DNA of 64,000 nucleotides, taken from Psammoneis japonica. Taxonomy: Eukaryota. The notes beneath the pieces are model-generated. The model had not been told where the DNA came from. It saw only the letters and a program-made list of their open reading frames with translations, and did not search any database. The stretch is from NCBI GenBank assembly GCA_008632985.1, contig QPGO01000121.1, positions 62,001-126,000 of the forward strand, written 5' to 3'. The first letter of the stretch is position 1, and each line of letters starts with the position of its first letter. This document shows, in pieces, positions 683 to 24,908 of the stretch. Made by a program: the position numbers and the translations under genes.

Positions 683-1438
683 CTAGGGTCGTGGTTCGTG
701 AGTCAAGTTGAAAAAGACTCCAAAAGAGCCAGGGGGTGAGTTGAAAGACTCTCCACACCTCAGCTGGTGCCGCACAAGAAATGGGTGCTGAGAGGGCATG
801 TTGAAAAGAACACCTCTGCTCCTGAAGTGTGGCTGCACCTCTCTGTCTCTTTTCTTCTTGCTGTTTGTGTTTGCACAGCTCCCATTGACTTTTTTTTTAT
901 CCTGGAATTGCCTTTGCATTTGAATTGAATTTTTTTGCAGTGCTCATTTTTTAAAATGCAAAAATTGTTCACAGCCACACCACCACTCACACCCGATCGC
1001 GCACCAAAAAACGAGAACATCATGCACCGCGATCAAAGCACGATGATGTGATGGCAATGGTTGATGTTTCTCCAAAATGCAGTGGTCTAACCACAATAAT
1101 TTGATGTGCGTGTGACCTTTTACACACAACAAACACAAAATGCATGGGAGTTGGTGGTTGGACCACCTCCTTCCCACAGACTTGTGGCTTGATGTTTTTC
1201 ACTTTCACCATGGTGAAGCACGGTGAAACTCAGAAAAAATCATGCAAATCACAAGCTGTTTAACCAAATTCAAGCTAAAAAAAACAGCAACCAGCTCCCA
1301 TTGAGCTGTGCAAAAACATGCACCAAAAACTTGGGTTCCAAGTGGGCAAATTTCAGGCTGGCAGAGCAAGTTTAAAAACATGCCTGAGCGGCACTGTGCG
1401 CAACAGAGCACACAGCAGCACCATCCTGGTGTCACACC
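683..1438. mobile_element. Unclassified TpA/CpG-depleted repeat fragment, possibly a DNA-transposon end, abutting the truncated 3' LTR of Copia-1
   Basis: Composition switches at about 690 to the TG/CA-rich, TA/CG-poor pattern of the neighbouring retroelements. No recognisable protein motif. It sits where the missing part of the Copia-1 3' LTR should be. Confidence 0.3.
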
Positions 1439-1776
1439 AACAAGTCAATGTCGCCAAAAGGGAATCCTGTGAGGTCTTCCATGCTGCTTCTTGCAGTTGT
1501 TGTGGCAGTCTGTGGCAGCTGTGGTTTGCCTTGGCATCAATGTAAACTGAACAACTGCTGAAATGACAGGCACCTCTTGATGCTGAGTGACAATCATGCA
1601 AACCAAATGATTCACTCCAAAGAGTGAGAGACACTCGCAGGGAATGTGGTGACACTTGTGATCTCATCAGAGAAGAACACTCCATCCAACCACACATCAG
1701 GACCAACATCCTTCTCATTCAACATGTCTGGGTCACATGATGTGACACCCATGTCTCACATTTTGATCTTCCAACA
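1439..1776 (-). repeat. 3' LTR of Copia-1 (outer end truncated)
   Basis: Aligns with 8163-8503 from aacaagtcaatgt..ccaaaagggaatcctg to tctcacattttg..ccaaca. Homology stops abruptly near 1439. Confidence 0.8.
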
Positions 1777-4700
1777 CACACTCCTGCTGCTCCTCGCATT
1801 GATGATCTGACATTCCCTGGCTTCATGATTGCACTGAGGCTTGGCATTGCCCTCTGGCATGCTCATTGCAAATTTGTCAGGTGCGTCAATGCTGTTGTCT
1901 GACAGCTCACACAAAGCGAACATCTGAATTGAGCTGCAATCTTCAAAGTCAAGGGGAGGAGCATGTGTCAAATTTCTTGTTTGCAATCCACCCCACTTGA
2001 TCATCAAAGCTCTTCACATGAGTGCAACAATCATTCTCTCACACTTCCTTGCTGTGCAGACCCACCCAGGTGACAAAATTTCACTTCATTGCAAGCCCAC
2101 TTCTGTCTGGGTTTTGCTTCAACAACTTCATGTTGGAAAAACCATGTCAACCTCAAAGTGTCCAGACAAGAACTGCGCTGTCATCTGTTGTCAAACCAAA
2201 CCAACAATGCATCAAATGGTCATGTCAGTTTGGTGCACATTCCACAAGGGGTCCACATGTTCTGTTCAGGGTCATGCCATGTGGGTGGGACAACTTGCTG
2301 ATGACCATTCCCACAGAAGGTCAATGTCTTCTTTGTCAAGGGCAAGCCGGAGCCTGTTCCCTTTTGACCTCACTGTCATTTCTTCACTGTGCTTGTCAGG
2401 ACAATCCGGGTCAGCGCCCTTTCCACAACATCTGCATCCTTGGATCCAGGTGTGTCCTCCAAGAATCTGCCAATGCTCCTTGGTCTTGTGTGCCACTCAT
2501 GCATGCTCCAGCATCTGGCACAAAACTTCACTTCCTTCACCAAACACAGAGATCATTGGTGAGGCAGCAAACATGTGTTGACATGCTGACAAACTTCACT
2601 TGTCCATCCCTTCTTTTGGTGTCATGTGCAACACCCATCACATTGAACCTCTCTGTCAACAGCTTGTGACATTTTTCTTCAAGTTCTTTCTTGCACTCAT
2701 CTTGCATGCCATCACAAAATTCCAGATGATCTTTCCATCCTTCTCAAATTCCAATGTCAACAATCTCATGTCAACCACCTTGCATGTGCAGGACAAATGG
2801 GTCCATTGGTGTTGACACATCTCCACTCTTTGCAAATCTGCCACATTCTTCCAGCACCTTCTGGGAATCTTGATCTTGGAATTGTTTCTTCTTCTCTTCT
2901 GACAATTCACTCAACTTCTTGAACTTGTCCCAATTGTGTCTTGATCACTGTTTTGCAAGAATGCATCATGTGGCTCCATGCCTTTGTTGATGTGTCCTGG
3001 TTCCTCATTGACAACACCGGTGTGCACAGTTGTCAACATCATGGTTGCTCTGAAGTTGAGCTGTGATTGGTTGAACTGCACGGTTCACCACATCCATGTG
3101 CATCAGAGTTCTTGTCTGACAACACAAACAACATTGATTTGTGCACCCTTGTGCTTGCCTTCTCTTCAGCAGCAGTCCATGATGGCTTGCTTGAACTTGC
3201 TGAACTTGTTCCTGCCCTGCAATGGCTCAGTCATGAAGTTTCCCAACATGTTGTCTGTTGAACAGCACACTGCAATCTAAGGTTGCCCTTCTCAATCTGG
3301 TCTGTTGCAAAAAAGTTGGATGTCGAGTGCTCCAGACCATTTTCCCATGCTCTTGTGCCCATTTGTCTCTGGCAGAACATTGCTCTGATTGTCCTGACAC
3401 AGGACATTCCAGTCAATCAGGTGTTCTTGGTGTCCCACAAACAACTTGGTCCACAGCATCATGGTTGTCACATTGTTGACTCCAACTGGTTTGGCCTCTC
3501 AGCACTGCTTTGGGTGCTCAGCTTCTGGCACTTGGAAATGGCTTGTGCCACACCATCACCCACAGTCATTGCACCTCCAGCGTGGCTTTTGAAATCTGGG
3601 TGCACTGCAAACAATGCACCCGTGCACCACTTGATGACTTGGAGGCATTTTGCACTTCTTTGGTGCAGTGACTTTGGTGCTTGATGAACAGGGCTGGCTT
3701 CTCCCAATCCTTGTTGGCAGGTTCTCTGACTCATGTGCACAGCTGTCCAGGTGTGGATTGTCTGTGCCTTGTCAGTTGGCAACCCACCCACATCACATGG
3801 TGGGTTCTCTCCTGCTGGTGTCATTGCAGCATCTTGGTGTTCTTGAACTTTTCCAGGAACTGGCTGACCATCTTGTGTGTGCAGTTGGTCACATTGATCT
3901 TCACCTTGCCCTTTTTGGTGAAGTCCAGAGTCATCCCCAGGGAGTCACACCTCTTGCCTTGAGCAGCAACAACATCACCACAGCTCCCATGCATCTTGGT
4001 GAGCCAACTCAGGAACATGTCATTAACCTTGGAGACCAATGGGTGTCATCCATGTGAAATCAGATGGTGTGCTGCTTGCCGTTGACTGCGCAGTTGGCAG
4101 TGCACTGATTGCATGAATTGAGCTTAACCCAACTTCTTCAAGTCTTTGCAAAATGATTGGTTGCACCACAGCAGGGATGCAACAAGCATGTTGCATGTTG
4201 CCCTGACAACAACTTGGATTCAGAGGACTCTCTCCCCCCTCTCCATGACCACAGGTTGTCTGCACAGGTTGGGATCAATGCTCACTGGCATGTTGACCAA
4301 CACTCCTGCAATCTTCATCACAATTTGGTCTTGTCACTGCTTGGGCTCTGGCATCTGTGTCTGGATGAACAAGTTTGGCATGTCCACACTCACAATGTCA
4401 TGCCCTTCCATGGCATCAATGATGGTCATCATTGTGATCCCTTCTGGCAATGCCATCAGACTGGCTAACTCATCCATGTCTGGCTGTTTTCTTGTTGGTT
4501 TCCCATTGCAGATGACTCATCCTTTCACACAACCATGTCTTGTTTCTCTGTGAGGAACATTGAGGCTGTCATGGGCCTCTTCCTCTCTGCTGGAGAAATG
4601 TCTTTGTCTCACACTGGTGCACAGCACCCTCTGTCATGGAGCCATCCAATCTCCTTTTCCAACATGTTTTGCCCTTGTTGGCCAAATGCTTTGAGGCCCT

Positions 4701-4986
4701 TGTGCAGCAATTGTTGCAGGGAGGCCAAATGAGGTGCCCTTTCCTGACCAGCCTCAGCCATTGATCTTGCACATGAATTGTGCCATTAACACTCCTGCTT
4801 CTGTGTTGCATTCTGTGCCCTTCTCCAGGTCACTGCTCACACTGGTTTGCAAATGATGGCAGCGCTCAAGTTCAGGCTGTGTCTGTTTCTCTTTTTTGGC
4901 ATCTGCCACTCCTGCAAATTGCACTTTTTGTTCTTCTCTCCATGGTCATTGTGGCATGATGGGATCCACTGCTTCCAGTCTGTTCA

Positions 4987-5094
4987 GGCTCATGTTGGTC
5001 TCTCTGTGGTTTGTTTCCATCCTGTGACATGTTGTGTCATGGCTCATGTTGGTCTCTCTGTGGTTTGTTTCCATCCTGTGACATGTTGTGTCAT
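4987..5094. repeat. Perfect 54-bp tandem duplication inside Copia-1
   Basis: ggctcatgttggtctctctgtggtttgtttccatcctgtgacatgttgtgtcat occurs at 4987-5040 and 5041-5094. Confidence 0.9.
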
Positions 5095-8000
5095 CACGTT
5101 CTTCTTGATCACCGTGTTTGTCTTCTTGACCATCACCATCATCATCATCCTCATGATGCTGGTCTGAACTGGAGACATTTCATCTGCAAGCATGTCTTGA
5201 GCTGTTTCACATTCATCATCAGAGTCTTCTGTTTCTTCCTGTTCTTCATGGTTTTTGTCATCAGTTGTTGCCTTTCTGGTTCAGTTTCCATTTTCTTCAT
5301 CAGCTTCATCATCTTTGTCATCACTTTTGGTGTTGCTTTCTTCTTTGTGGTCCAATCCTGCAGTCCAATCTGCATCGCACAGGTTGTCTCACATTCATCC
5401 ACAAATGCTCAACCACACGCACATGTGTGTCAGTCAGGGAGATTGGGGCACACTCGAAGGGGTTGAGTGACTTGCTCATGTGCAAGTTCACAGTGTGGTG
5501 TCTGCCCTTTGGAATGTCACAGCATGGTTTGAGGCAGACACTGTTAACGCCACATGCATCCCCAGTGTTTGATGGGTTGGGCTTGGTGTGGGGCAGGACA
5601 AATTCTCCAAAACAGCATCCAAGCTGTTTGTCACAGGTGAGGCTCTTTTGTTGCACAGTGGTGTGTGGACTTTGCATGTCTGAGATTCTTTCTTTCTGTG
5701 GGTGCATGTTCAACATGACAGTGTTCTCAATCACGGCATGCTTGCACATCAAAATGGGTGTCATCTTGCATGGCAGGTGGTGCACAGTTGCCCGAGTTTG
5801 CTCTTTGACAGTCTGAATGCTCCTCTCAATTTTGGGAACATGATTGCTGGCTTTTGCAGATGTCAACTCTGGGTCCATGCCATCAGCCACCGCTGCCAGC
5901 ATGTTCTTGAACTCTGGGTCACAATGAAGTCAATCTTGAATGCAGCCACATTGTGCTGTTGCAAGATCATGTCCTGTGCATTGCATGCATTGGCGTGGTT
6001 CTTTTGGACTTTGGTTTCATGCTTGATTGGTGCTTGATTGTTTTGTCCACTGCATGTGGCAGTTTGACTCCACACACTTCCATGATGTCAATGCAGAGTG
6101 TCATGCCTTCCCTCTGCTTCTCTTGTGCATTTCACAGGCGGCAATGCTGTGATGTCGTTCCTCTCATGGGAATGGTGCACACACTTGGCTTTGCCTTTTA
6201 CAGTGCATCTGTTGGTGGGTCCCATGTGCCCACCATTCTTTTCACATCCTCAGGTGCAATGGTCAGATCCTTCACCTGGTTTGATTGTAGAAATGGTGTG
6301 AAGTCATTCACACTTGGGGTTCCAGCTTTGTGGCACAATCTGAGTGCTTGCTCAGCATCAGCCACCTCTCTCTTAGAGCAGCCCTTGGCACTCTGTTCTG
6401 CCACGGGAACTGCCACTCTTGATGTGCCATTGTGCTTCTTCTTGGTCTTGCTCTTCTCATCCTTTGACAACATGCTCACATCCTTCTTGCACTCTGGCAG
6501 ATCTTCAGTGCAGTCAAAGAATCTCAAACTTGGGGCAAACATGTGCAGTCCAATGTTGTTGACCTTGATCACCACAACCTTCTCCCCAGTTTTCTCATCC
6601 AGCAGTCAGAACACATCCACCACTTGGTTGTCACAAGTCACATGGCACTTGTTCTTCATGTCCTTTAAATGTTTGATGTTTGCCACAGCATTGTCTCCCC
6701 ATCCTGGCTTTGTGCAGTCCTTGTCTGGGGCACCCAAAATTGCTCCACATTGCTGGTTGATTGGTCAATCTTGATCCTTGTCAGATGCACATTGTGCACC
6801 AGTTTCCAGCTTGCTGCCATGCCAAGGGAGGAGCCATTGTTGAGGAGAATCTCCTTGGAATCAATGTTTGTGTTCACTTGGTTCATGCTCACCTCTGATC
6901 TCTTGGTGACCAGCTGCAACCCATGCCATGCAGCACCTCTGCTTTTGCTAGAATGGGTTGATCCATTGGAGCTTGTGGTGCTGTCCACCAACAAATCATC
7001 ATCATTTCCACCTTGTGTTTGCATGTGGCTTTGTCAAGCAACACCCAGTTTCTTGCTGGCATTCTTGTGCCAAATGTCACAGGTGGTGACATCCCCTCTG
7101 TGTGATCACAATCTGGGAACTTGTGACCCTTCATTTGCCATGACAGTGACACATCATTTTGTCACTCTGGTTGCTCTGTTGAGCATGACTCTGGTGCTTC
7201 TGCCTCTCTGTTCCAGTGTGTTCCCATTGTTGTCATTGTTCCTGTTGTTTTGGCTGTGGTCATTCCTTGCAGCAATGCTCTGTCATTTGCGTGGATCATT
7301 GTCTTTTAGATGACCAAGCATTGCATTCATTGCCTCATCTGAGGTCTTCAGTTGGGCACCCTCCTTGCCTGGACTGCAGTCTCTCATGAAGCTCTTCTTC
7401 AGGCTCTTGCACTGGAAATGTGCAATCATTGCTGATCTCCATGGACAGATGTGCATCATCCCTCTGTCTTGCATGCAGACTCTTGCATCTCTTTCTGCTT
7501 TGCAGTGTTGACATCCTTGAACTCCTTCCTGTTGGAGATGAGCACACTCAGCATCTTGTCTCCCCCAGCCCTTCTTTGGCGTTGCATCTTGTTGGTTCTT
7601 GAACCTTGACAGGCAGTCATTCAGTGGCTCATTGTCTTGCTGTCTCACAGCTGGGATGTTCTTCAGGGCCCTTGCAAGGGCATTGAATGGGTGCCAACCT
7701 CTGGTTCTCTGTGTTTGACACTGCTTTCACCTGACAGAACAATCTTGGATCCTTCAAATGCTGGCATCTTGCTTGTGAAGTCCTCACACTTCATGTCTTT
7801 GTGGATCTTGCCAGATGTGCACCTTGGCTGCATTCCTTCTCTGCATCTGTCAAACAATCTTTTTTTTTTGACTTTCTTGAGTGTTGCATTTCAGGAAATG
7901 CTGCTCAGTGACAAAGAACAGAATTTTGTCTTGGACTGAAAGTGGTGTTTCTTGGTGTTGGTCTTTGTCTTTTCATTTGTTGACCTGTGACTTCCATCAC

Positions 8001-8162
8001 CTCTGCTGCAAACATGTCCTTGGGCCTGACAGCTTGTCTTGCCAACTCCCCTGCCACTCATTGTGCATGCATTCTGACAACTTGGCATTGGCAGTTGGCA
8101 GTGGTCTTGAAGCAAGTGAGGGCCAAACAAGCACTCCTGACTCTTTGGAGTAAATGTAGAAC

Positions 8163-8503
8163 TAACAAGTCAATGTTGCCAAAAGGGAATCCTGCAAGAA
8201 GGTCTGCTGCTCCACTCGCTGCACTTGTCTTGGCAGTCTGTGGTGGCTGTGGTTTGCCTTGGTGTGTCAATGTAAAATGAGTGACTGCCAAAACAACAGG
8301 TGCCTCTTGATGCCAACAGATGATCATGCAAACCAAATGTGGCTCACTCTGAAAAGTGAGAATGAAACACATGCATGGAGAATGTGGTGCCAACATTGGA
8401 GAAGATTGCTCCAGCCAACCATGTCAGGATCAACATCCTTCTCATTCAACACATTTGGGTCACATGACATGACATCTGGGTCTCACATTTTGGCACTCCA
8501 ACA
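8163..8503 (-). repeat. 5' LTR of Copia-1 (inner boundary may extend to about 8083)
   Basis: Homologous to 1439-1776. Ends ...ccaaca at 8503, followed by CCTGCC. Confidence 0.8.
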
Positions 8504-10490
8504 CCTGCCCCCCAGACAGCAAGAGCTGCTGCAAGGTGCTGGGGGTTGGCGCACCTCCTTGGCATTGTTGCTCCCCCAATGCCAACAGTTTGATGACCAA
8601 GGACACTTTTTGCAGCATTTCAGAGGGCAAAAACAATGGGTGCACACAAGCAACTTCCGGCTCTTCTCATCTGCCAGGCAGAAAGAGAGGGGAGCCAAGC
8701 ACCGCTTTTTGCTCCAAAGAGGAGGCAGTGTGCAAAGCAGCCGGGGGCTCCAAAGTGATTGACAGTGAAGGGGACAATGTGGATGCCAGCATCATGGAGG
8801 GCAGATGCAAGGGTTGCTTCATGTTGAGTTTTGTGTGTTCTGCAGAACTTCCGTTTGGTGCTTGTGTGGTGTGCCTTGGTGTGAGGGTTGAGGATGAGGG
8901 CAGGCAAGCCAGGAGCAGGCAATGGAGGAGGTTTGGGAATGATGATGGCAATCGCAAGGCAGCAGTGGCCAAGAGAGGGGAGGCAGCAGAAGCAGCTGGA
9001 TTGAGCTGGGGACACCTGCATCAGCGAGGCATTTGTTGAGGGGCAAGTGGGGCATGAGGTTGGTGGATTCATGATGGATGGCAGAAGAGTTGGTGCAAAT
9101 GCCAGAGAGGGGGGCAAGGGTGCATCTGAAATGCAGCAAAGAGGGCATCTTGGATGGCATCAGATGTGGTGGTCTTGTGTCCAAGGGATCAGCAACAGAA
9201 AGCATGGTCACCGCAGGGGTCAGCGGCGCCATTGCAGGAGGGGCAGCAGATGGATTCAAGGTGATCTGGGGAAATGGGCAGCCTTGGCTTGCATTGTGGC
9301 ACAAGGCAGAAATGGTCTGAGGCCAGGTGGTGTTGAAGAAAGTGAGCAAGCGAGGGATTGGAGGGAAAAGCTTGCAAGTGGAGAGAGGAGGGATGGGAGT
9401 GCAAGGAGGGCAAGGTGCAGAGGGCCTTGTTGTTGGAGCATCTGCAGTTGGTGGTGAAAGTGGGCATGGTGTGGGGCATGGAAGAGGTTGCAGAGCAGGT
9501 GTGATTTGACAAGGGCGGCAAGGGAGGGCTGAGTGGGGTCAAGCAGTGATGTGGTCGTGGTGGTGCCACAGTGTGTTTGAAGACTTGGCAAAGGCACAAA
9601 GGGCGGTGAGAGGTGGTCCATGTGCAAAGGGAGCGGGCACAAAAGGGAGAGAGTTTGAGGGAGTTGTTGTTGCCAGTGGTGGGCCGTGTGTGGTGCAGCA
9701 CAGGGAACGGGTGTGAGTTGGGGATGAGGAAGTGGATGGCAGCAGAGGTGGAGATGGAGCGGCGCCCGATGCCACCATCGGCACGCGGGGAGGTGGGCAC
9801 ACAAGAAGCAGGGTGTGGGGTGGCAAGCATTGTGATTGTGCTGTCAGGTGTTGCAGGAAGGCATTGCAGTGGCGTTGGACCTCTTGTTGGAAAGGCGAGG
9901 TCCAGGAAGTGAGGGGTGGTGGGGTGTCTGGGTCGAAACTGAAGTGGACGTCTGATGCCAGGAGGTGCGGAAGTGAGGAGATGGCACAAGTGCGGTGCAG
10001 GAAGCTTTTTGTTTGGGAGTCATGCAGGCAGAGGAAGAGAGTCAGTCAAGGTTGGTGCAAAATGTGGATGCTTTCTGGTCGAGGCAAGTGCTGGCAAAGT
10101 CAATGTGCTGCTGCCGATGGGTTGGCCAAGAAGGAAGCGGAGACCGGCGGTGATTTCAGGGCAAAGGGAGTGGGGTTGTTGGTGGGGTTGAGGAAAATAA
10201 GGGCTTCTTGAAGGGTGGTGGCATTTGCTGGAGGCAGCAGCACTTGCTGGAGGCAGGTTGGGCGAGGGGCTGGTGCCGAATGAAGAGGTGAGTGTGCGAG
10301 TCTTGGAGTGGTTGAGGTGCACTCAGTGTGTTCAGCCCAGTTCCTCGAGACATTGCAAGGACAACCATGGCAGTTCCGTGTGTGGCAACCAAATGCTGGT
10401 GTCGTCGATGAGGAAGGCAGTGGACGTGACGTTAGAAGATGGGAGTCATTGGTGTAGTTCGGCATTGAGCTGTTCGAGAACATTGTTTCT
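8504..10490 (-). mobile_element. Degenerate, 5'-truncated non-LTR retrotransposon with restriction-like endonuclease (CRE-like)
   Basis: Minus-strand fragments in the expected order: YTND (YxDD-like, about 10450), LNHSKT, GLRFLLGQPIGS, DGGIGRRS, zinc knuckle CPSCNGAADPCGDHAFCC (about 9190-9250), and REL motif HIVPFTVNHFGAPG (about 8760). Confidence 0.7.
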
Positions 10491-10858
10491 GCCGGGGGGC
10501 ATGTGCATCCGTGCGTCCGGTGAGCCGTGTTGTGCACAGTGCGCGCGCGGGGGCACACGTCATCGCGGTCAATCTTACGAAATCGGCAAACCGCCGAACT
10601 CCACAACGGAAGAAAAGACCAAGAAACAATTCTCAAAATCGTGTACATTCTACGAAGGCCGCTCGTATTACGTAGGCAGAATATGCACTGAACACGTGGC
10701 CATGCATATACTGCGATCTACGTGATTTCTACGCCACGCGAACACCGTTGGCGCAATGCCGAACTTTCGTCATTCCTCCTTTTGAGATTCCATTCCATTC
10801 GCATCATTGTGTGCAACATCAACCTGTTGTTGGAGGGAGATTTGTAACGACAATTGTT

Positions 10859-12553
10859 ATGAGGAAGACAATGAAACGTAGAATATCAACCGATGAATAT
10901 GATCCGTTGAGGGAGTCGAAGCGGCTGGGTATTTGCTTGCCTGTTGATGACGTAATTACAATTTCGCCTGTTGCCGAGGAAGAAGCGAAGAGAAGCATTC
11001 CTACTTTATCGACAATACCGAGGGTTTCCTCTCTTCATGCAATATCATGTAGTTCTTCCGAGGGAGCTTGTAGCGAAGATGAAGAAATGGAAGACCACCA
11101 GTCGTTAGGCGAGGCAGTGATGGAGGCAGGAAATCGTACTCACGAACCTACCAATCACGAATCATCATCATTGTTCACCAAACGTGTGTCCTGTAGTGAT
11201 TTGGAAGAACTGCCAGACAATGTGACGGCTGTAGTGTTTGAAGCCGGACATGGTCATTACGACCGAAACAATAGATGTCAACGAGAGCGACCGCTCCGTG
11301 TAACGAGTGTGATGGAGCACTTGAAGAAATCATCCGAGAATCTTCAAGAAAGGTGTCGGTATTATGATGAGCAAATACCCGGGGAGTCCTCAGCCGAGCA
11401 AGACTTTTTGGACGATGATGATTACTTGCGGGTTCACTTACCTGGGTATATGCAAAGGTAAGAGATTATTTTCCCATCATTTATTAAGCTGAAACAGCTT
11501 GTAAGTTTATCGATGCGTTTTCTGTTTTGCTCATAATTGTACATTCTATTCTTCAGGCTCGACAGATTGTCTACATGTACTTGCTGTGAACGCCTGGATG
11601 ATGAAGCACAGCAGTTTCAGTCTATTTTCTTCACTCCAGAATCCGTCAAGGAAGCCAAGGCTGCTGCTTCGTCTCTGTGTCGCCTCGTGAGTAGCGTGGT
11701 CCAAGGCCACGTGGACAATGGCTTTGCAGTGATTCGGCCTCCAGGACACCACGCGGAGCCTGGCCTAGCGGGTGGCTTTTGCATCATTAACAATGTCGCC
11801 GTGGCGGCAGCCTATGCAAGAGCCAAGCTCGGAATCAAGCGAGTCTTGGTGGTGGATTATGACGTTCACCATGGGCAGTCGACCCAGTCGATCTTTTGAA
11901 GGATCCCAACGTACTGTACTTTTCTGTTCATCGTTGGGAGGGAGGGCGATTCTACCCACACTCGTCTGCCGGAAGTCCAAAAGTTGTTGGAATCGAAGAG
12001 GGTGCGGGATACAATATCAATGTTGGTTGGAGCCGCAAGGGAATGGGAGACGAGGAGTACTTTGCGGTATGGGAACGCTTGCTCATGCCTGTCGCTCAAG
12101 AGTTTCAACCCGAGCTGGTTCTCGTGAGCGCAGGTTTCGACGCTGCCAAGGGAGACATGGGTGAGTTACATTGACGCGCTGAATGAAGTTTGTAGTCATG
12201 TTTCGTTTGCCATTGCTCGTGCTTACAAAGGCTTTTGTTGTTGTGTTGCTACAGGTGAATGCAATGTCTCACCAGAATGCTTTGGCAAGCTAACAGGTCG
12301 ACTCATGTCACTCGCAAACGGAAAGGTGGTTTGCGCTTTGGAAGGTGGTTACTTGCGAAGTATCTTGGGAAAGAGTGTGGAACGCGTCATTGAAACGCTG
12401 TTGTCTCGCGATAGCTGCCAAGAGGAGGAGGAGGCGGATATCGTAGGAGCCGACATTATGAATGACATTGACAAGACTGCAGCCAAGAATATCCGTGACA
12501 CCATTGAGGCTCACAAACCGTACTGGAGATGTCTCAATGATTCAGACCTGTAA
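10859..12553 (+). CDS. Histone deacetylase, class II (HDAC6/HDA-like)
   Basis: Motifs ERPLRV, RPPGHHA, GGFCIINN, DYDVHHG, SVHR, SAGFDA and LEGGY. GT-AG introns at 11458-11556 and 12161-12254. One-base frameshift in a T run near 11896. Confidence 0.9.
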
Positions 12554-12844
12554 AAAAATATGCGGCAACGCTGCCGCTGTGGTTGTGCCTTCCTGGTGCA
12601 CCTACAACGTGCTAAGTTGAAAGTTGGTCTTTTAGCATTCATGCATACCCGTAGCAATAGGCAATGTAGTATTTCATAGCCCTCACAGTAGGTTATACTT
12701 TTATACAGTATAGCATTACACAGCTTACAACAGATTACAACATTCACTTCAAATTTGTACATGACAGCTCTGTTATTGCACAGAACATTACCCATCCCTA
12801 TCCCCGCATACACCCCAACAAACATTCACTGTAGCTCAAGAGCA

Positions 12845-13622
12845 TCAAAAGAAAAGAAACCGACGCTTCCTTTCATGCTTGAGTGGATCCTTACCAACAA
12901 GATCAACATACTGTTGATACGTTAACCGATGCTTGGAACTCTGGTATCGTGTTAGTTTGATCTTTTGCAGCAAACCCTTCCGTACCGGCCCGGAATATCC
13001 AGATTTACGCACCAAGGATACAACAGTCTCCTGCTGGGACCATCTAGTTTTATGAAGAAGAATGTACCATAGAAAGAATAGGTTGAGAGATTGAGAAAGC
13101 CCTGAGCCGGTCTACTCCACCTCCACTCAATAAGAAACCAAGTACGACTCACCCTTGCTCCTTTGCAACTTCCGGGAGATACGTTGCAGAGTATTCAATA
13201 CCCCCTTCGCTGAACTTGATAATAATCCCATGAACGCCAACAACCCAATCATGACAGTCCAATGACTCCTCATAATTGACAAGCAGTGAAACCGCAACCC
13301 TGAGATGCGGGACTTCATCTGTTTTGATGGGTTCGAACCGCCGATCACGGAATGCAGAAGTCAACGCATACTCGCCCACGGCTGTCAGTAGTGGTCGCGG
13401 ACTCAGCGTCCCGATACAACCTCGTAACTCGAAATTCTCGGATGCAAATCGCCGTTTATCCCAGGTAACAAACAGGGGCGCTTCCGCCGCTGGAGGTATG
13501 GTGTCAGCAAAGAGTGGTCGACTCTGTTGTTGTCGCTGCTCGCTACTGAATCGTTTGCTCCTACTGGACGAGGATGAAGGTGCTAACTCATTGACCAAAA
13601 CATCAAAGCAATAGTGGCACAT
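12845..13622 (-). CDS. AMMECR1-domain protein
   Basis: Motifs PLFVTW, LRGCIGT, SAFRDRRF and ATYLPEVAKEQGW. Intron at about 13045-13152. Exon 2 reads WSQQETVVSLVRKSGY...TRYQSSK...FLFF*. The true start may lie up to about 100 bp upstream. Confidence 0.9.
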
Positions 13623-14129
13623 TTCGGAAGTTGCCTGGAGTTGGAGAGATGCGACATTTTCGTCCTTCTCTTCGACATCTCTCGGACTACATTGACACGT
13701 GGTGACAACAAAAAATTCAGCCCGTCATGAGAAGAAAAAGTTTGAAGTACGACTATCCCGAAAGCGCTCGATCACACAGTTTGCTCACCTCATCACTTCT
13801 CCTTCCTCCCTCCTGCGCTCACCCTGGACGCCACTGAACCGAATTACAGATAACAAGTTTCCTTGTGCTTGCTGCGAGAACTAACAATGTGTCAAAAGAA
13901 TTGTCTTGTCCAGCGCAGCACCATTCCGAGTCGTGTCAGTCATGAGTCAGTCATGACAGACGGTTCGATTTCGCGCGCTGAAATCACGGTAGTAGTCTAT
14001 CGTACAGTACGGCCGGAGAGGTTGTGCGACGCCCGTTTTTCGCGGCAAAACCTCCCCGTTAGAGAGACATCCACTGGGCTGGCTGCCCATCTCCCATCAA
14101 CAACAACCCCCCCCACTCCCCCAACCCCC

Positions 14130-14221
14130 ATTTCTCTCCGCCTTTTGGCTTTGACTTTGTGTAGTAACTCAGCCATTTAAGGTTCCTACACAAAGTCATA
14201 GCGCGAAAGGGCTGAGTGGAG
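14130..14221 (+). pseudogene. Truncated U2 snRNA 5' fragment (nt 1-40) followed by an imperfect antisense arm forming a hairpin
   Basis: 14130-14169 nearly matches the first 40 nt of the U2-like gene at 21520. 14181-14221 is its approximate reverse complement (ctacacaaagtcatagc against gctttgactttgtgtag). Confidence 0.6.
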
Positions 14222-14501
14222 TGCGCGCAAACAGGAAGTGATCAGTCCCGCCTGCCAGAAACATTCGGGACTCACCGAGGTTGCGTCCGTCATGCTTCAC
14301 CGCGACAAAAAATTCCGAACGATTGACGATGGTGCGCCGATGTCGATAACTTTTGCTAACAAGCATGTTCTCTGCACCTGTTGGGTATTTAGTCTTTATC
14401 TATATACAAACAGTCTACTTTATGCATTAGGTGCGGCCAATTCGACGAAATGGCGCCAAAATGACCAACTGTCCACAGGCTTCTGCTGGCTGGGCCCTGC
14501 C

Positions 14502-14734
14502 TGTTGAGATTCACCCTTCCAGCGGCAGTCCAAGGGCCACTTCAGTCCTCCAAGGCTGATCCTGGGCAAAATAGACAAGCTCGTTGTCACAATGCTTTCT
14601 AAGAGTTAAAAGAGAACAGTGACTGCTTCATTGGCAGTTCTTGTGCTTCGCGCAGAGCACATCAGTGCTGGCACACACGTCTTCTTCACGCTGTCCAATT
14701 TCGTCTTTGTGCTTTTGGTGCACACTTTCCAACA
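14502..14734 (-). repeat. 3' LTR of Copia-2
   Basis: Close match to 19600-19831. Preceded on the minus strand by cagcaggagtg. Confidence 0.9.
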
Positions 14735-17700
14735 CACTCCTGCTGACCAATGAAAAGATTTGTTTGCATTTCCAAGTTTACCCATCTTGGGCACTTGGAG
14801 ATGTTCTTGACAGTTTGACAACCAACAATGAACTTCTCACCAAGCAACCACAGGCTTGGCCATGCAATCTCCAATCATCTTGTCTGTTGGGCAGAACTCA
14901 ATCTCAAGTTCTCTGCACTTGATGAGGTCAGTGATGTAAAAACACTTGATGTTGAAGTGTCTTGTGCATTTGCCTGAACTGGCCTTTCCATTTTCTTCTA
15001 ATTTTGCGCAACTCTGGTTGCCACGATCATGCATGATGTTGTGTTTGACTGGAAACCTTGGGCTTCAACAAACAGCTTGGTCCAAAGGACCTTTGACACA
15101 ACATCACCTCCTGCAACAATTTCTGCTTTGGCAGAACTTCTGGTGTTGATCTTCTGCTTTGTGCTGACAGATGTGATGACACCCTTTCCAAGAGTCATCA
15201 TTGCTCCAGTGTGGAGTCTGAGTGAGCTGCAAAGGTGGCATCAACATGCCATTCAATGTTGACTTCATCTCCAGCAGACATTCATGCTGGGTTTTCTTGA
15301 GGAAATTCATGACCCTCACCAGCTTCATCCAATCTGATTTGTTTGATTCTTTGACTCTGGTGGAGAGAAAAGAAATGCGAGGCCGGATGTCCTGTCTGTG
15401 GCTCTCTTGCAAAGAAACATGCCCTTCATCACAAAAGTGCAAAATGTTTCAGCACGCTTGGGATCCAACTTCTTGGCCTTCTTGTCCACCTTTTTTTGCT
15501 TCTTGTTCCATGGGCAATCTACATTGCCAGACAATTCTTCCGGGAAGTCCCTGACCATGCCTTGAATGCAGAGCACCATGTCCACTTGCAGCATTCCTGG
15601 AATGTTGTAATCCAGAATCATGGCCAAGCAATTGTGCCTCTTTCCACACGTCACTTTGACCTCTCCAATCTTGTCTGCACAAGTTTTGTCAAGCCAAATC
15701 TTAAACTTGTTGTTGACTTTGCTGTCAATGTGGCTCAACTTCAAATCATCAACATGCCATGTCACCATGTGCTGCTTTCCATTCATGATGCAGTTGGCCA
15801 CACATGGATCATGTGGATTGACCTTGAAGCCAACTCCTTTGATGTCTTGAGGACAGAACTTCTTGCAACAAAGAATGGAAGACACCAACATTCCACAGAG
15901 TGCCTTCAACATTTCCATGTGCAGGACCTTGTGCTTGCCTTTGTGCACAATGCAGTCCTGACAAGTTTGGGATCTAATTCAAGCAGCATGTCTGCCATCC
16001 TTCCACAAATCTTCGTGATGATCTTCTCATCCTTGACCTCAATGTCTGTCTGCCCAAATGCATGCAGAATGTCTGCTGTCATGACATCTCGGCCTTGCTT
16101 GGCATTGGTTGCTCCTGTGATGAGAATGGACTCAGTGGATGCTGTGGGAACACTGGCTGTTTTGTCACGGTCCATGTGCTCTCATTGCGTGCTTCCATTT
16201 GCACACAATCTGGACTTGATTCGTCCATCTCTTTTCTCTGTGAGAAACATGAGGCTCTCCATGGCCCTCTTCCTCTCCAGAGGAGTCATGTCATTGATGT
16301 GAATGGGCTTGAAAACTGCTCTGTCATGGATCTGCTGCAGCTCTGATGTGGCCGACTTGGGGCCTTCTTCTCCAAACTTCTGGAGTCCTCGTGCCAAGCT
16401 GCAAGTCTGAATGAATTGATGTGCTTCCTCAACAGTGGTGACAGCACTGATCTTTTCATTCCATTGGCACACTGTCATGGCCACAATCCTGGCTGTTTCC
16501 AAGCTGTGCTCTTTGACTTGCGAGTGAGCCTGAGTCTGTAAATTGTGGCGCTGGCAATCGCCAAATCTTGCTGGAGGTTTGAGAGTCCTTCCGGTCCTCA
16601 ACTTGGCAACAGGCTCTTCTTCAACACTCTCTTCAGTTTCACTCTGTTCATCTCCAGACTCGTCTTTGGATTCTGGCTCTTGCATTGTGGCAATGAGCTC
16701 TTGCACTTCTGGAGAGAATTCCTGCTCTTGATTCTGCAGCTCATCAATGTGTTCAATCATGTCATTGATTTCTTGGGAGATTCCACTTCCTTCTGATGAT
16801 TGGGAACCTTCTTTGTCATTCACTCTGAGATGCTCTTCTTGTTGGGATTCTTCATCTTGTGCTTCATCTTGCTCCTCGCTGATGTGGCTGGCTTCTTCAC
16901 CCAGCTCTTGATCTCAGATCATTTCTTGCAGCTCTTCTTGGCTGACTCTTTTGCAGTCTCCCCCCCAGCCCAGCTTGTCTCCTTGTCGTCTTCCTTGTCC
17001 CTTGCTTCAATGTCTTCTTTGAGATTGCAGTCTTTGTCTTTGAGTTGATCTTCATCACAATCCACTCCTGCAAGCCAAGCACTGTCACCAAAACAATTCC
17101 AGTGCGGTTCTCAATCTTGAGACCATTTTGGGCATCTTGTTCATTTCAGCCAAACGATGAACCTGTTTGATGATGGCGGGAGTGATGGGTGGCACAGGGG
17201 TGACCTTGCAATGGGTGATCTTCTTGCCAGTGTGCAAGTGCAGCAACTCATGTCCAATCTGGTTGCTGTTGGTGGGGCACAAACAAATGCAATCCAAGGT
17301 CCATGACTCTTGGGTGTTGTTGGGATCCGGGTCATTTTGAGCTTGCACACAAGTGCCAAACATGATTTTGCAGCTCTTGTTGTAGTCTAGATTCTTTTGA
17401 TGGAGAATCATCCTTGGGCTGCAATGCTTTGAAACACCATGCTTGGCTGGAAAATGACTGAGCTTCTTGGCAGCCTCGGTGACCATGACTTCCACCATGA
17501 GGTTTGGAAGATGCTTGAATGGCAGTTGATGACAGACTGTCCTGGCACATTCTTGAATGACTCTGTTGTTCCACTTGGCTTCTGGGACATGTTCCTGAGC
17601 ATGAGCACAGCTCATCTTGAGATTGAACTTGTCTTCAAGTGCACCCCAATGGGCCTGAACTCATTGTGGCAATGAATGCACGTGACCTTTAAATCAGCCT

Positions 17701-19599
17701 TGTTGCAGTCTTGCAGCATGCCTTCCAGAGCTTTCTGATGGGTGGCTTGGGTCAAATCCTTCAACGGCTGCACAGTGCGACAAAAAATGTTCCGTGACAC
17801 TGTGGTGAGGAACAGCAATCCATTCACCTTGAGTCCATCCAGGCAAAGAGCGACTTTGTGCTGAGCTGCAATGAGCTCCTTCGGAATCTCAATGCAGTCT
17901 TTGACAACTGGCTCTGGCTTTCACCTGGTGACCTTGCCTTTCAGGCTTCCAATGTCTGGTCCAAAGATCTTCTTGGCCAAATCCACGTCCTTGGTTGCAA
18001 CGGGATTGCTCTTGATGCTGTTTGTGTGAATGATGGCCTTCAGATTGTTTGCGGTTGGGTTTCCCAGCAGGTGCAACAATTCTTGAGCTCTCTTGGCTTG
18101 CTCAAATTGGTGTGAAGTGCAGAACTTCTTGTTTTCCTCAACGCTCTGCATGAGTTGGAGCTCAGCTCCAGTGTCTTGGATTGTGGGCTTGCAGACATGC
18201 AGCCCGCTTGTGCCCTCCTTGAACTTGACCTGCTTGTGGGGCAAATGAACGGTGAATGCATTGTCTTGGAAGGAATCACAAGTGATCCTGTGCTTCTTCT
18301 TCATGCCAGAGCAAGCAAAAATGTTGGTGCTGATCACACCTTGCATCTGGGTTGAACCAGGCCTCACTGAGTCCAGGCACAGCAGCCTTGTGAGAGTCGT
18401 GATTGGCGCTCCTCCATTGGTGTGCAATCTCATGATTTCATCAGAAGACAGACGAATGTTTGCAACCAGCTTCTCATTTCAGAAGATGGTGGTTGTGGAC
18501 TGATTGTCCAATGAAGTCCAGTCTTTCATGTTGTCAGACTGTCCTTGCAAGAGAGACACATCAATGTGCATGCCAGCCCATTCAGAACTGGCAGACTTGG
18601 TTCCAGTGGTTGCAGCACTGGCATCATCAGCTGCCTGAATGTTGCTTGCTTCTTCTTTGGCCTTGGCCTTGTTGATGGCCCATTCTGATTGATCTCTTGA
18701 GCCTCTCTCTCTCTGCAATTTGTGGACTTGCATCCTGCCTTTCCACAACAGTGGCACACCTGCCTTCCATCTGAGCAAAAGACAGGGCGATTTCTTGGTT
18801 TTCTTCTTGTTTCTTGGAATCGAAGTTGTTGTTTTGATTGTTCCTGTTCCTGTTGTTGTCAGACTGTTTGACGCAATCAAAGGTGTGGTTGCTCAATGCT
18901 GTGTTGGCTTCCGCAACAGACTTGGGATGCTGGTTGTTCTTGAGTGACTGCCAAGTGTTCAATCCTGTGAGAATTGATCCACACTTGCATTGATCTGCAT
19001 TCTCCAAGTGCATGAAACCCATCAGCTGGCTGAATGCCTTCTCTTGGCATTTTTTTGCAGCGTCTGAATTGGACTTGTCACAATCCAACATGCCCTCTGA
19101 CTTTGGTGAGGATGATTGGTCCCCCGATGTGAGACTTTATGACGTCTCTTGCAACCCTGAATTGCTTGGTGCAATCTTGCAGACTCTCCTTTTTCTTTTG
19201 TTTGAATTCCAGCACAGCCCCATGGAATCTGAGATGATGGCCATGTTGCATCTCTGTGCTCTTGACAACTCAATGCATGCTCCTTGATGGCCTTGAGCAG
19301 TTCAGTGGGACTGTTCTCAATCTTGGTTTGAAATTCATTGCAATCTGAAAATCAGATGCTTGCTTGGCATTTCCAACGCAGCAGACGCAGTCTTCAACAT
19401 GCTCTTGTGGCTCTGCTTGCCCACACGCTTGTTTCCTCTTCTACAGGATCCTTTTCCATGGCTCCTGTTGCCACCTCTGCCTCTGCCTCTTCCACTCATG
19501 TTGGATTGGCAAAGCAGGAAAATGTCTCCCACTTGGCGAGAATGACTCTTTTCTTCTCTCTTGTTTTTGTGCCTCTCAGCTGGTTTGCTCTCTTTCAAC

Positions 19600-19831
19600 T
19601 GTTGAGATTCGCCCTTCCAGTGGCAGTCTAAGGGCCACTTCAGTCCTCCAAGGCTGTTCCTGAGGGCAAAATAGACAAGCTTGTTATCACAATGCTTTCT
19701 AAGAGTTAAAAGAGAACAATGACTGCTTCATTGGCAGTTCTCGTGCTTCACGTGGAGCACATCAGCGCTGGCGCACACGTCTTCTTCACGCTGTCTAATT
19801 TCGTCTTTTGTGCTTTGTGCACAATACAGCA
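19600..19831 (-). repeat. 5' LTR of Copia-2
   Basis: Close match to 14502-14734 except for the terminal 10 or so nt. Confidence 0.9.
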
Positions 19832-22363: not shown

Positions 22364-24304
22364 ATGTGGCGTCGTCGACTCTTCAGACACCGGGTTTGGG
22401 AAGTCGATCTAGAAGCGAAAGAAAAGTTTGACAACGTCAGCAGGTTCGAACCAGTGATTGATCAAACAACTGGATCAACTAGTGAACTCCCAGAAACTTT
22501 GGCTTCTCCAGAGAGTTTGAGTATTAAATTCAATCGCGATGGAAGCATCGAGCACACACGAAAGGGTGACACTGAATCAGGCGACGAATCGTCGATGAAA
22601 CGAGCACGAGATGCCTTGGCGACGCTTGAGGATCAGATTCAAGCAGCGAAAAATAACGAGGAAGAAATCGATCGGAAGGAGTTGGTCAAGGCTCTTCTTC
22701 TCTTAATCGATTCGTCTAAAGAACGAGAAGATGTCGCAAAGCTGCTACTGGAGGCGGATATGGACGCACACGATGACTCGTCGAACCCTGCTAACAAGCC
22801 CCATCCTGATTGCAGCCTTGCCGATAGTGATGAAGAAAGCGACTACTTCTCGGGTGCTGGAATAGAAAGCTGGAGGAATGGAAACATGGAAGGGTATAAA
22901 AAAGTGTCGCGAAGAAAAGATAGGTACAGCACGAGTGAAACTAGCGATAAGAGCAGACGAACTGGTGGCAAGCAGACGAAGGGCCTTCGTAGCAAGGACG
23001 GAGATAGGAATGAACGTATTAGAACTTCAGGCATCCGAAAGAAAGGCCTACAAAGTTTACGTAACGCCGAGGATGAAAGTACCCGAACCAGTGAAACTGA
23101 CACTATTTCAGGGGACGATTACAGTTCGGTCTTTACAGAGAAAAGCCAGAACGGTTGCGATCCTTGCGCCGGTTTAGGCTTTCGTAACGGTGACGTGCGC
23201 GAAGCATTCATTGATATTTTATGGGGTGGTAGTTACATTCGACGGAGTAGATGCGGTATGAATACCGCCAGTGATTATTCTACTTCCGTAACGAATTCGT
23301 TGAAATCTTCGGAAGGCCAGAGGTCAGAGACGGATTCACCGAGTTCGGACGACAAGTTACTGCAGAAGACAACGAGAAAGAATAAGTCACTGCGGAGTCT
23401 CCAGCTTAAGCGCTCCACTAAAAAGTCACCCAGTGCTTTTAACGTCGGCAAAGATGTCAAAGGTGAGGATGATGATGACCTTCCCGCCGATATCTTAGTG
23501 CAGACCAATTCAAAAACAAAGCCAAATGATCCGAGCTCAAAGGATCATTCGTCTGATGATATTGACGAGGTGGATTCTTTTTTGTTCAATGAGGCTTTAT
23601 TTGAAACCCCCGATATTTTCTTCACTGACAAACAAATCGAAGCAAAACGAAAGCAAGTTGTAGAGCTGACGGGAAGGGAGCGTTCTGCATCAGTTGATGA
23701 CATCGGTCCGCCTGCAAGTGTCAGTATACGACGATCTCAACGCATCACTGAGAAATTCTCAACTCAAGAAAGTTCCACTATTGATTCCTCCACACGCTCA
23801 AAGTCTCGTCGTCGGTATTCTCCTTTCCGACGTTCTAGATCAAGAACAAAAGCTGGCAATGATGAACGTATCCATCCTACTTCTAATTTCGCCGATCTCG
23901 AGAACGCGGTGTCAACAAGAAGGCGGGGTAGAAGCCGCTCGCGTCGGGGTCGTTCCAAAACGCCTGATCCTAAACTCAAGGAAGAAGATGAATGGGTTGC
24001 ATTTCCCCCAAGTGGTGACTACACATCTGTGAAAGCCGATCCATCCAAGCTCAAAGTACCGTTTTCACCAGCGGAAAGAAAACACTCAAAGTCCGTTGGG
24101 TCCTTCATCAAGAAGCGTTTGCCTCGTCGTCGTTCAAAATCAAAGCAACGAAACGACAATGACTCTGAAAGGTGCAAGGTCACAGTGCACGATACATCCC
24201 GCAGTGAAAACCCCGATGATGACCAGAACCTCCAGGATTGTCCCTCGCAATCTGAGGACTCAATATGGGATGGACTGATAAAGCAAGCAACTTTGATGTT
24301 GTAG
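22364..24304 (+). CDS. Hypothetical low-complexity Ser/Arg/Asp-rich protein, 646 aa
   Basis: Long uninterrupted ORF with host-like dinucleotide composition. No recognised domain. Confidence 0.7.
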   Translation: MWRRRLFRHRVWEVDLEAKEKFDNVSRFEPVIDQTTGSTSELPETLASPESLSIKFNRDGSIEHTRKGDTESGDESSMKRARDALATLEDQIQAAKNNEEEIDRKELVKALLLLIDSSKEREDVAKLLLEADMDAHDDSSNPANKPHPDCSLADSDEESDYFSGAGIESWRNGNMEGYKKVSRRKDRYSTSETSDKSRRTGGKQTKGLRSKDGDRNERIRTSGIRKKGLQSLRNAEDESTRTSETDTISGDDYSSVFTEKSQNGCDPCAGLGFRNGDVREAFIDILWGGSYIRRSRCGMNTASDYSTSVTNSLKSSEGQRSETDSPSSDDKLLQKTTRKNKSLRSLQLKRSTKKSPSAFNVGKDVKGEDDDDLPADILVQTNSKTKPNDPSSKDHSSDDIDEVDSFLFNEALFETPDIFFTDKQIEAKRKQVVELTGRERSASVDDIGPPASVSIRRSQRITEKFSTQESSTIDSSTRSKSRRRYSPFRRSRSRTKAGNDERIHPTSNFADLENAVSTRRRGRSRSRRGRSKTPDPKLKEEDEWVAFPPSGDYTSVKADPSKLKVPFSPAERKHSKSVGSFIKKRLPRRRSKSKQRNDNDSERCKVTVHDTSRSENPDDDQNLQDCPSQSEDSIWDGLIKQATLML

Positions 24305-24908
24305 GGGGGAGCCAAAGTAGGAGGGGCTCTCAGGTTCTGTTCTCCGTTCCTGTAGATGTGTGCCCTACCTATGCTTCCTCCTTGCAAGCCTGCCTTGTCT
24401 CAGAACAAGATAGGATGCCTCATCCCGACCATCCAATTGTCTCCTCTCTTTACTAGCAATGATAGCGCTCTAAGCCTACATAATTTATAGCAATGCATAC
24501 GTACCTTATGATCAAGAAGCGTTTGCCTCGTCGTCGTTCAAAATCAAAGCAACGAAACGACAATGACTGCGAACGGTGCAAGGTCACAGTGCACGATACT
24601 TCCCGCAGTGAAAACCCCGATCATGTCCAGGACGTCCAGGATTGTCCCTCGCAATCTGAGGACTCAATATGGACTGATAAAGCAAGCAACTTTGATGTTG
24701 TAGGGGGGAGCCAAAGTAGGAGGGTTTCTCAGGTTCTATTCTCTGTTCCTGTAGATGTGTGCCCTGTCTATGCTTCCTCCTTGCAAGCCTGTCTCGTCTC
24801 AGAACAAGATAGGATGTCTCATCCCGACCATCCATTGTCTCCTCTCTTTTGTACTAGCAATAATAACGCTCTAAGCCTACAAATTTATAGCAAGCATACG
24901 TACCTTAT
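24107..24908 (+). repeat. Tandem duplication of about 400 bp covering the 3' end and 3' flank of the 646-aa gene
   Basis: atcaagaagcgtttgcc...gcatacgtaccttat occurs at about 24107-24510 and 24511-24908, with scattered differences. Confidence 0.9.

Follow-up and report, generated by a model that had tools for sequence, protein, structure and literature searches.

TpA loss and the elements of the window

We analyzed a 64,000-nucleotide window of the Psammoneis japonica genome (assembly GCA_008632985.1, contig QPGO01000121.1, positions 62,001 to 126,000 of the forward strand), in which three blocks of DNA were nearly free of the dinucleotide TpA. The blocks were located via dinucleotide odds ratios per kilobase (kb) and a 200-base map of the window. 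They coincided with long terminal repeat (LTR) elements, which are referred to here as elements A, B, and C, and the neighboring genes were spared. Block A (positions 801 to 10400 of the window; no strand assigned) was poor in both TpA and CpG and contained 26 TpA in 9.6 kb. Block B (14801 to 19600) was a TA-poor tract with 12 TpA. Block C (31001 to 38000; plus strand), a Copia tract with normal CpG that lay outside the range covered by an earlier note on this DNA, contained 20. The TpA odds ratio per kb was 0.00 to 0.10 at positions 1001 to 10000, 0.00 to 0.05 at 15001 to 19000, and 0.00 to 0.09 at 31001 to 38000, compared to 0.29 to 0.79 in the remaining bins of the window, including the gene-bearing DNA between the blocks.

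The 38 TpA left in blocks A and B compared with about 570 that were predicted from the rest of the window; the density fell from 39.7 to about 2.7 per kb, which meant that about 93% of the TA steps were gone. The CpA and TpG odds ratios were raised to 1.3 to 2.7 in the TA-poor blocks, and the gain in CA plus TG equaled the TA loss in measure. The AA, CA, and GA dinucleotides were not depleted. Thus, the loss was confined to TA, the dinucleotide in which T lies immediately 5' of A, as in the TadA/ADAT footprint. The CpG odds ratio was 0.04 to 0.37 in blocks A and B and 0.69 to 1.03, which is normal, in block C. Because CpG was normal in a TA-poor block, TA loss and CpG loss were separable; TA erasure neither needed nor caused CpG loss.

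In element A, a left LTR (1436 to 1785) and a right LTR (8161 to 8512) aligned to each other, and neither was assigned a strand. The alignment had 261 identical columns, 62 transitions, 16 transversions, and 24 gap columns. At 19 of the 79 pyrimidine-purine (YR) sites shared by the two LTRs, one copy carried CA and the other carried TG. Since the LTRs of an element are identical at insertion, these discordant sites indicated that both copies of A were struck independently after insertion. The number of discordant sites fit a near-random choice of strand, given the approximately 32 ancestral TA and CG sites expected in this LTR pair.

The interior of element A (1786 to 8154; no strand assigned) had no recognizable domain and held 13 TpA (YTAR 10, RTAR 2, and YTAY 1). 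When 115 open reading frames (ORFs) of at least 70 amino acids from blocks A and B were searched against Pfam, 102 had no family, and accepting matches with E up to 0.001 gave no families for A. The other 13 had weak matches only, all under the curated cut-offs and none to a retroelement domain. The 91 ORFs of 38 to 69 amino acids from these two blocks had no Pfam family either. A reverse transcriptase (RT)-RNaseH profile built from 80 Copia relatives of block C had no match in A, and a tblastn search of the window with the ORFs of Copia element C gave no hit in A or B with E under 0.24.

Two other features were observed in block A. At positions 4987 to 5094, within the hypermutated DNA, a 54-base unit was perfectly duplicated in tandem (2.0 copies at 100% identity), and this duplication must be younger than the surrounding mutation. 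The right end of the block (9601 to 10400) was TA-free and G-rich (GC skew of +0.3) and had kept its CpG (5 to 10 per 200 bases); it looked like DNA distinct from element A that was likewise struck by TA erasure.

Element B lay on the minus strand. Its LTR at the lower coordinates (14501 to 14724) kept three of the TpA shared with its partner, and its LTR at the higher coordinates (19599 to 19823) kept six, whereas the Copia-type interior (14725 to 19598) kept only 13 in 4.9 kb. Thus, the edges of the mutated tract coincided with the LTR/interior junctions. The LTR pair (224 bases) had 208 identical columns, 13 transitions (about 10 of the CpG type and 3 of the TA type), and 1 transversion, and each LTR kept 7 to 8 CpG. 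The RT-RNaseH profile matched the minus strand collinearly at 16038 to 16358 (E = 8e-9), 15502 to 15921 (3.5e-5), 15176 to 15400 (4e-3), and 15022 to 15216 (3.7e-7). The LTR pair and these four collinear remnants identified B as the remnant of a Copia element. Over the LTR pairs of A and B together, TA was found opposite CA or TG at 4 sites, and CA was found opposite TG at 20 sites. The earlier note had named two Copia elements and a terminal-repeat retrotransposon in miniature (TRIM) in this part of the window. A Copia label fitted B; element A had an LTR pair but no retroelement domain among the 206 ORFs searched, so that a Copia label was unconfirmed for it, and no TRIM was found.

In the case of element C, Pfam matches were obtained to Pol_BBD (34146 to 34967) and RVT_2 (36494 to 37258). 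The pol product was 50% identical to that of a relative, P0001, and the homology ran to position 38257. No LTR pair was found for C, and a search with purine/pyrimidine-recoded sequence gave only a spurious long alignment. Relative to P0001, C carried a 448-base insertion on the plus strand (36109 to 36556), which contained 5 of the 20 TpA in the block and may be younger. The insertion was bounded by 110-base direct repeats (36109 to 36218 and 36446 to 36555) that were 91% identical. The summed contig depth on these repeats was 40,000 to 100,000 versus about 56 on unique DNA, which indicated a very abundant short repeat family.

We also compared C with read contigs from one public sample, in which 66% of the sampled words of positions 28500 to 38400 were present and which may be the window's own source. 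At 80% likeness, 2054 contigs matched C with a summed depth of 270 to 1250, compared to about 56 on the unique flanks; thus, the family of C was multi-copy. The contigs differed from C at 1233 places (C>T 277, T>C 230, G>A 191, A>G 186, and transversions 345). Protein searches for same-family copies that could polarize the changes gave relatives of at most 55% identity only, the best of 150 listed representatives was 60% identical to C over a fragment only, and a sequence look-up with the RT-RNaseH DNA of C returned no look-alike stretches. A metagenome scan yielded 80 Copia loci, whose TA odds ratios were 0.47 to 0.95, and not one TA-poor 600-base window, so that the scan offered no independent replication of the survivor pattern described below.

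The translated pol sequence of C contained 0.4% Tyr, 6.0% His, and 3.3% Cys, compared to about 5.2%, 2.5 to 3.3%, and 1.5%, respectively, in the closest relatives. When the RT-RNaseH region (36494 to 38038) was compared with its homologous counterpart in the 80 unmutated loci, TA was lower by 53.5 per kb, and CA and TG were higher by 29.6 and 8.0 per kb, respectively. Sense-strand T-to-C changes (TA to CA) exceeded A-to-G changes (TA to TG) roughly two to four to one in C. The composition of the pol product was in line with this strand bias, as were the conserved Tyr columns considered below (His 5 and Cys 3). A first figure for this strand bias, which used the window's own background (CA +36 and TG +4 per kb), was overstated and was replaced by the comparison with homologous Copia DNA.

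Sequence context of the surviving TpA sites

The 38 survivors in blocks A and B were distributed over ten of the 16 NTAN tetramers: TTAA 10, CTAA 7, GTAA 6, GTAG 3, and two each of CTAG, TTAG, TTAC, CTAC, TTAT, and ATAA. The remaining six tetramers had no survivors. When the sites were grouped by flanking base, YTAR accounted for 21 of the 38 (276 of 1692 in the rest of the window), RTAR for 11 (450 of 1692), YTAY for 6 (450 of 1692), and RTAY for none (516 of 1692). Only 4 of the 38 survivors contained ATA or TAT, compared to 815 of 1692 sites elsewhere. These counts bore out the earlier note, which had described the survivors as mostly YTAR with some GTAA or TTAC and had found RTAY and ATA/TAT nearly absent. 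Equal depletion of the NTAN contexts, which the note had named as the result that would refute it, was not seen when all 16 tetramers were counted in the TA-poor blocks and in the other DNA of the window.

To compare these counts with random survival, we used binomial tests against four nulls: the other DNA of the window, every YR site within the blocks, the CA and TG sites of the blocks (from which any new TA would arise), and 13,107 TpA from the 80 unmutated metagenomic Copia loci. All four nulls rejected random survival, with p values of 3e-4 to 5e-8 overall. Specifically, YTAR was found 21 times versus 6.2 to 9.3 expected (p = 7e-5 to 5e-8), RTAY 0 times versus 9.2 to 11.6 (p = 4e-5 to 1e-6), ATA/TAT 4 times versus 16.2 to 18.3 (p = 2e-5 to 2e-6), and TTAA 10 times versus 1.5 to 2.8 (p = 3e-4 to 1e-6). 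Thus, non-random survival of TpA was confirmed and was statistically strong.

When the window density was taken as ancestral, 45% of TTAA survived, followed by CTAA/TTAG (22%), GTAA/TTAC (11%), CTAG (7%), CTAC/GTAG (6%), and ATAA/TTAT (5%); ATAT, ATAC/GTAT, ATAG/CTAT, and GTAC had 0 survivors of 235 expected. These values did not agree with the idea that YTAR is a protected class. Only 21 YTAR were left of about 93 expected from the window density or about 155 expected from the Copia density, a loss of 77 to 86%, and CTAG survived no better than CTAC/GTAG.

The dependence on the flanking bases was then described with log-linear survival models, in which each A:T pair of the TA has a factor that depends on the base just outside it. 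In blocks A and B, replacing uniform loss with a pyrimidine/purine rule improved the fit by chi2 = 41.6 with the window null and 34.4 with the Copia null (1 degree of freedom; p = 1e-10 and 5e-9, respectively), and replacing this two-level rule with a four-level rule improved it by a further 15.7 and 14.1 (2 degrees of freedom; p = 4e-4 and 9e-4). A strand-specific model was not needed for these blocks, since it gained only chi2 = 5.0 over the symmetric one (3 degrees of freedom; p = 0.17). Relative to a flanking A, log survival was -0.8 to -0.9 for G, -1.3 to -1.6 for C, and -2.6 to -2.8 for T, and the four-level multiplicative model reproduced all 16 tetramer counts. The order of loss by the base next to the A was therefore T > C > G > A. 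TAA outlasted TAG (25 versus 7; p = 0.001), and TAT was lost at least as much as TAC. TAC followed by C, G, or T was found in 1 flank versus about 15 of 76 expected, a comparison in which CpG decay confounds TACG. The target that the earlier note had proposed, TAY, thus captured a real difference that uniform loss did not explain, but its split into pyrimidines and purines was too coarse for the graded order. TAY is usable as a fair shorthand for the fast contexts and as a first approximation of a graded two-position rule.

Flank positions +1 to +6 were scanned with both orientations pooled. An A was present at +2 in 46 of the 76 flanks of A and B versus 25% at reference sites (p = 7.5e-11) and in 22 of the 40 flanks of C versus 23% (p = 2.8e-5). 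Positions +3 to +6 had no effect (p = 0.19 to 0.37 in A and B). The +2 effect was seen within each +1 class. For example, TA-C-A was found in 12 flanks of A and B and TA-C followed by C, G, or T in 1, and TA-G-A was found in 13 flanks and the other TA-G contexts in 5. Adding +2 to the +1 model gained chi2 = 31 to 33 in A and B and about 16 in C; TA-N-A slowed the loss about threefold whatever the first flanking base was. Sites with T-N-TA-N-A on both flanks made up 16 of the 38 survivors in A and B (p = 7e-9) and 5 of the 20 in C (p = 0.016), compared to 131 of 1691 sites elsewhere in the window. The best-protected site is T-N-TA-N-A, with the consensus TTTAAA. The second flanking base, which was as informative as the first, had been missed in the earlier note; tttaaa was among the strings that it listed.

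Block C served as a partial replicate. ATA was found in 0 of its 20 survivors versus 5.3 expected, and the +2 effect was repeated; thus, flank dependence at two positions was replicated there. The pyrimidine/purine contrast was not significant in this block (p = 0.05 to 0.11), and 10 of the 20 survivors were YTAY.

Explanations for the flank dependence

Our preferred explanation, to which we gave about an even chance of being correct, was that the LTR elements and the adjoining non-genic DNA were hit in place by a TpA-restricted A:T-to-G:C hypermutation that depends on two flanking bases. This explanation builds on three features demonstrated above, namely the depletion itself, a two-position flank dependence that was replicated in C, and the independent post-insertion hits in the LTRs of A. 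Specifically, TA would become TG or CA, on both strands, in integrated LTR retrotransposons and the non-genic DNA beside them, and how fast an A:T pair is lost would be determined by the two bases that flank the TA on the side of that pair. On the strand that carries the A, 5'-TA-T would be lost fastest, followed by TA-C and then TA-G; TA-A would be lost slowest, and TA-N-A would slow the loss further. Both strands would be read alike, which would make T-N-TA-N-A the best-protected double-stranded site. The flank dependence may reflect the intrinsic preference of an enzyme with the footprint T-A-[T>C>G>A]-[not A], the deciding bases probably lie beside the mutated pair (the near side) and not beyond the other pair (the far side), and the chemistry may be adenine deamination. 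The context dependence had already led the earlier note to propose an enzyme, and a specificity for a dinucleotide plus its flanks is indeed expected of a sequence-reading enzyme; the step is reasonable but unproven.

The near-side and far-side models fit survival exactly alike, and because of this only the products of mutation can separate them. Four differences between the LTRs of A and B could be polarized; CTAA became CCAA three times and TTAT became TTGT once, all as the near-side model predicts. The share of near-side products in A and B was 0.69 (bootstrap range of 0.57 to 0.83), close to the value of about 0.65 predicted from the fitted rates, under the assumption that CpG decay was split evenly between the two product types. 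Taken together, the products weakly favored the near-side model.

Several points weighed against this explanation. The two models are mathematically identical for survival, so the survivors cannot separate them. CpG decay removed more sites than TA loss in A and B, and a 60:40 bias in its products would erase most of the signal in the 0.69 share. In C, where CpG was intact, the near-side share was 0.42 (0.19 to 0.61). Five usable rows in which the window had CA and another copy had TA were present among the 40 listed of the 1233 differing places; one was palindromic, one agreed with the near-side model, and three did not. The survivors of C required a strand-specific model (p = 0.001), and the strand bias of C is left out by a symmetric one. 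Four TACG flanks survived in C versus about two expected. At least one survivor in C, 37130, lay in a Tyr codon at a position where relatives carry His and may be a newly formed TA. The survivor sample was 58 sites from one window, with the ancestral context distribution estimated from proxies. Finally, no enzyme, modified base, or de novo event was seen.

Some of these points are what would be expected if the rate at the target A were set by the bases before the T, as 5'-[A>G>C>T]-T-A with a non-T one base further out, an alternative that we took seriously and still judged to be unlikely. Its fit to survival was identical to that of the near-side model, and AID/APOBEC deaminases read positions -1 and -2. 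The 12 conserved Tyr columns of C had become His (CAY) in 5 cases, Cys (TGY) in 3, Phe in 2, and Trp in 1, and 1 was still Tyr; the excess of His over Cys is in the direction that this alternative predicts, in a sample too small to separate the models. The near-side share in C and three of the four informative read rows among those listed pointed the same way. However, all four polarized LTR events in A and B were opposite to its prediction, the near-side share in these blocks was 0.69, and the evidence from block C could also be produced by the strand bias of C.

A different alternative concerns the base that is modified, since the sequence fits A or T equally well in this role. The thymine in 5'-[A>G>C>T]-T-A may be attacked, for example by a TET/JBP-type dioxygenase that oxidizes it to 5-hydroxymethyluracil or 5-formyluracil, which would mispair with G. 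Oxidized thymines are mutagenic towards T-to-C. This idea explained every survivor count equally well, with the flank rule simply becoming its description on the complementary strand. Neither such an enzyme nor an oxidized thymine was seen in this analysis. The sole paper on a signature of this kind favors adenine deamination, which it presents as a hypothesis without proof (bioRxiv 10.64898/2026.01.13.699255), and we considered attack on thymine to be rather doubtful.

It also seemed improbable that the protected sites were a matter of accessibility, with the junctions of T-tracts and A-tracts in TTTAAA shielded, structurally or by chromatin, from a mutator that needs only TA. The protected consensus is indeed a run of T followed by a run of A and is symmetric on both strands. 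However, the effect ended abruptly past the second flanking base, and TA-G-A and TA-C-A, which are not A-tracts, were protected as well (13 and 12 flanks versus about 5 to 9 expected).

We considered it very unlikely that the survivors are uninformative, being later new TpA, selected sites, or sequencing errors at modified bases: position 37130, at least, does look like a new TA, 5 of the 13 survivors in coding segments of C were in-frame Tyr codons, and element A is old enough, with its 16 LTR transversions, that many new TpA must have arisen, but the CA and TG null was rejected in A and B (ATA/TAT 4 versus 16.4 and TTAA 10 versus 2.8), A and B contain no intact genes on which selection could act, and the read contigs, from a set that may be the window's own sample, reproduced the C locus while other copies differed at the same sites. 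In addition, if new TpA do arise, the fact that they are scarce would mean that TA is still being removed according to context, and this leads back to the preferred explanation.

Known systems and other features of the window

TpA-only A:T-to-G:C hypermutation has been described in integrated viral DNA of Bigelowiella natans (Mettrop et al., bioRxiv 10.64898/2026.01.13.699255). The preprint reports 231 de novo TpA mutations, which arose at a rate about 1000-fold above background. As in the window, only TpA changed, to TpG or CpA depending on the strand, and the changes were limited to foreign or mobile DNA; a deaminase was proposed there. In contrast to the window, which holds a fossil record in LTR retrotransposons, the Bigelowiella mutations were found in another lineage, in giant-virus and virophage inserts, and occurred de novo in mutation-accumulation lines. 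The main text of the preprint does not contain the words "context," "flanking," or "trinucleotide," and its mutation list (Table S2) may hold such data. This preprint was the single relevant match in the literature that we searched on TpA hypermutation and on diatom transposable elements. Thus, TpA hypermutation itself is already in the literature, and we did not find the flank rule described in the literature searched.

The pattern resembled repeat-induced point mutation (RIP) in that dinucleotide-specific transitions on both strands kill repeats in sharp-edged tracts and spare nearby genes. RIP turns CpA into TpA and thereby enriches TA, whereas the TA-poor blocks had TpA odds ratios of 0 to 0.10 and CpA/TpG odds ratios of 1.3 to 2.7. 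RIP was therefore rejected as the process, since C:G-to-T:A changes at CpA are contradicted by the depletion of TpA. Like AID/APOBEC deaminases, the putative activity would defend against mobile or viral nucleic acid by mutating it and would have a short footprint around the target; unlike it, AID/APOBEC enzymes deaminate C, have a footprint 5' of the target, and typically act on one strand of retroelement cDNA. ADAR editing also produces A-to-G changes that are clustered in repeats. Its neighbor preference is weak, with G depleted at -1 and G or A enriched at +1 (PMC10027721), whereas in the window the T at -1 was absolute and sites with A or G at +1 were the least affected. ADAR hyper-editing was set aside, since RNA editing before integration does not explain the independent post-insertion hits in both LTRs of A.

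The footprint T-A-[T>C>G>A]-[not A] most nearly resembles the loop motif of TadA, and it is an exact match to none of the motifs that we compared. Early evolved base-editor TadA variants prefer YAC. TadA requires a U or T before the edited A, and the motif at its bacterial sites, including all 15 in E. coli, is UACG (PMC10027721); like the contexts that were lost fastest here, it has a pyrimidine at +1 and a base other than A at +2. TadA and ADAT2-ADAT3 differ from the putative activity in that their substrates are hairpin loops of RNA. In fungi, mRNA editing of the ADAT type has U at -1 and, opposite to the order found here, prefers A or G at +1 (PMC10027721). Amphioxus ADAT2, the only natural ADAT reported to edit DNA, prefers GAA for adenine, as well as TCG (PMC10354150). 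The link to TadA-family deaminases made in the earlier note is thus a resemblance only. If the resemblance to UACG is real, a DNA-acting TadA/ADAT-like adenine deaminase might serve as genome defense and be a natural adenine base editor, with T-N-TA-N-A as its blind spot, an idea that we put forward tentatively and consider unlikely at present.

Only one preprint deals with TpA-specific hypermutation of mobile DNA, and no enzyme is known for it. With two informative positions per side, the flank rule extends the dinucleotide signature to a four-base footprint, which can be used to compare candidate enzymes, checked in the 231 Bigelowiella mutations, and applied in scans of other genomes for this process. 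The transposon sites that should be kept also follow from the rule: those of the TTTAAA type are predicted to persist, and Tyr codons are predicted to change to His or Cys. This prediction bears on the adaptation of elements to a defense of this kind.

Outside the TA-poor blocks, the window contained five host-type ORFs with Pfam matches: DER1 (26739 to 27701, plus strand), SnoaL_3 (39940 to 40902, minus strand), CCDC53 of the WASH complex (45430 to 46677, minus strand), an AAA_16 STAND-type NTPase (51388 to 53589, minus strand), and a Questin oxidase-like protein (56404 to 57747, minus strand). Three tandem arrays were also found outside the blocks: a 399-base unit in 2.0 copies (24107 to 24908), a 42- or 84-base unit in 2 to 4 copies inside a 1000-amino-acid ORF (47974 to 48151), and an 84-base unit in 7.2 copies (63394 to 63997). 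At position 30050, which also lies outside the blocks and inside an unannotated 647-amino-acid ORF (28817 to 30757, minus strand), both read sets (X1 and X2) carried C at full depth where the window has T, so that ATAA in the window corresponded to ACAA in the reads.

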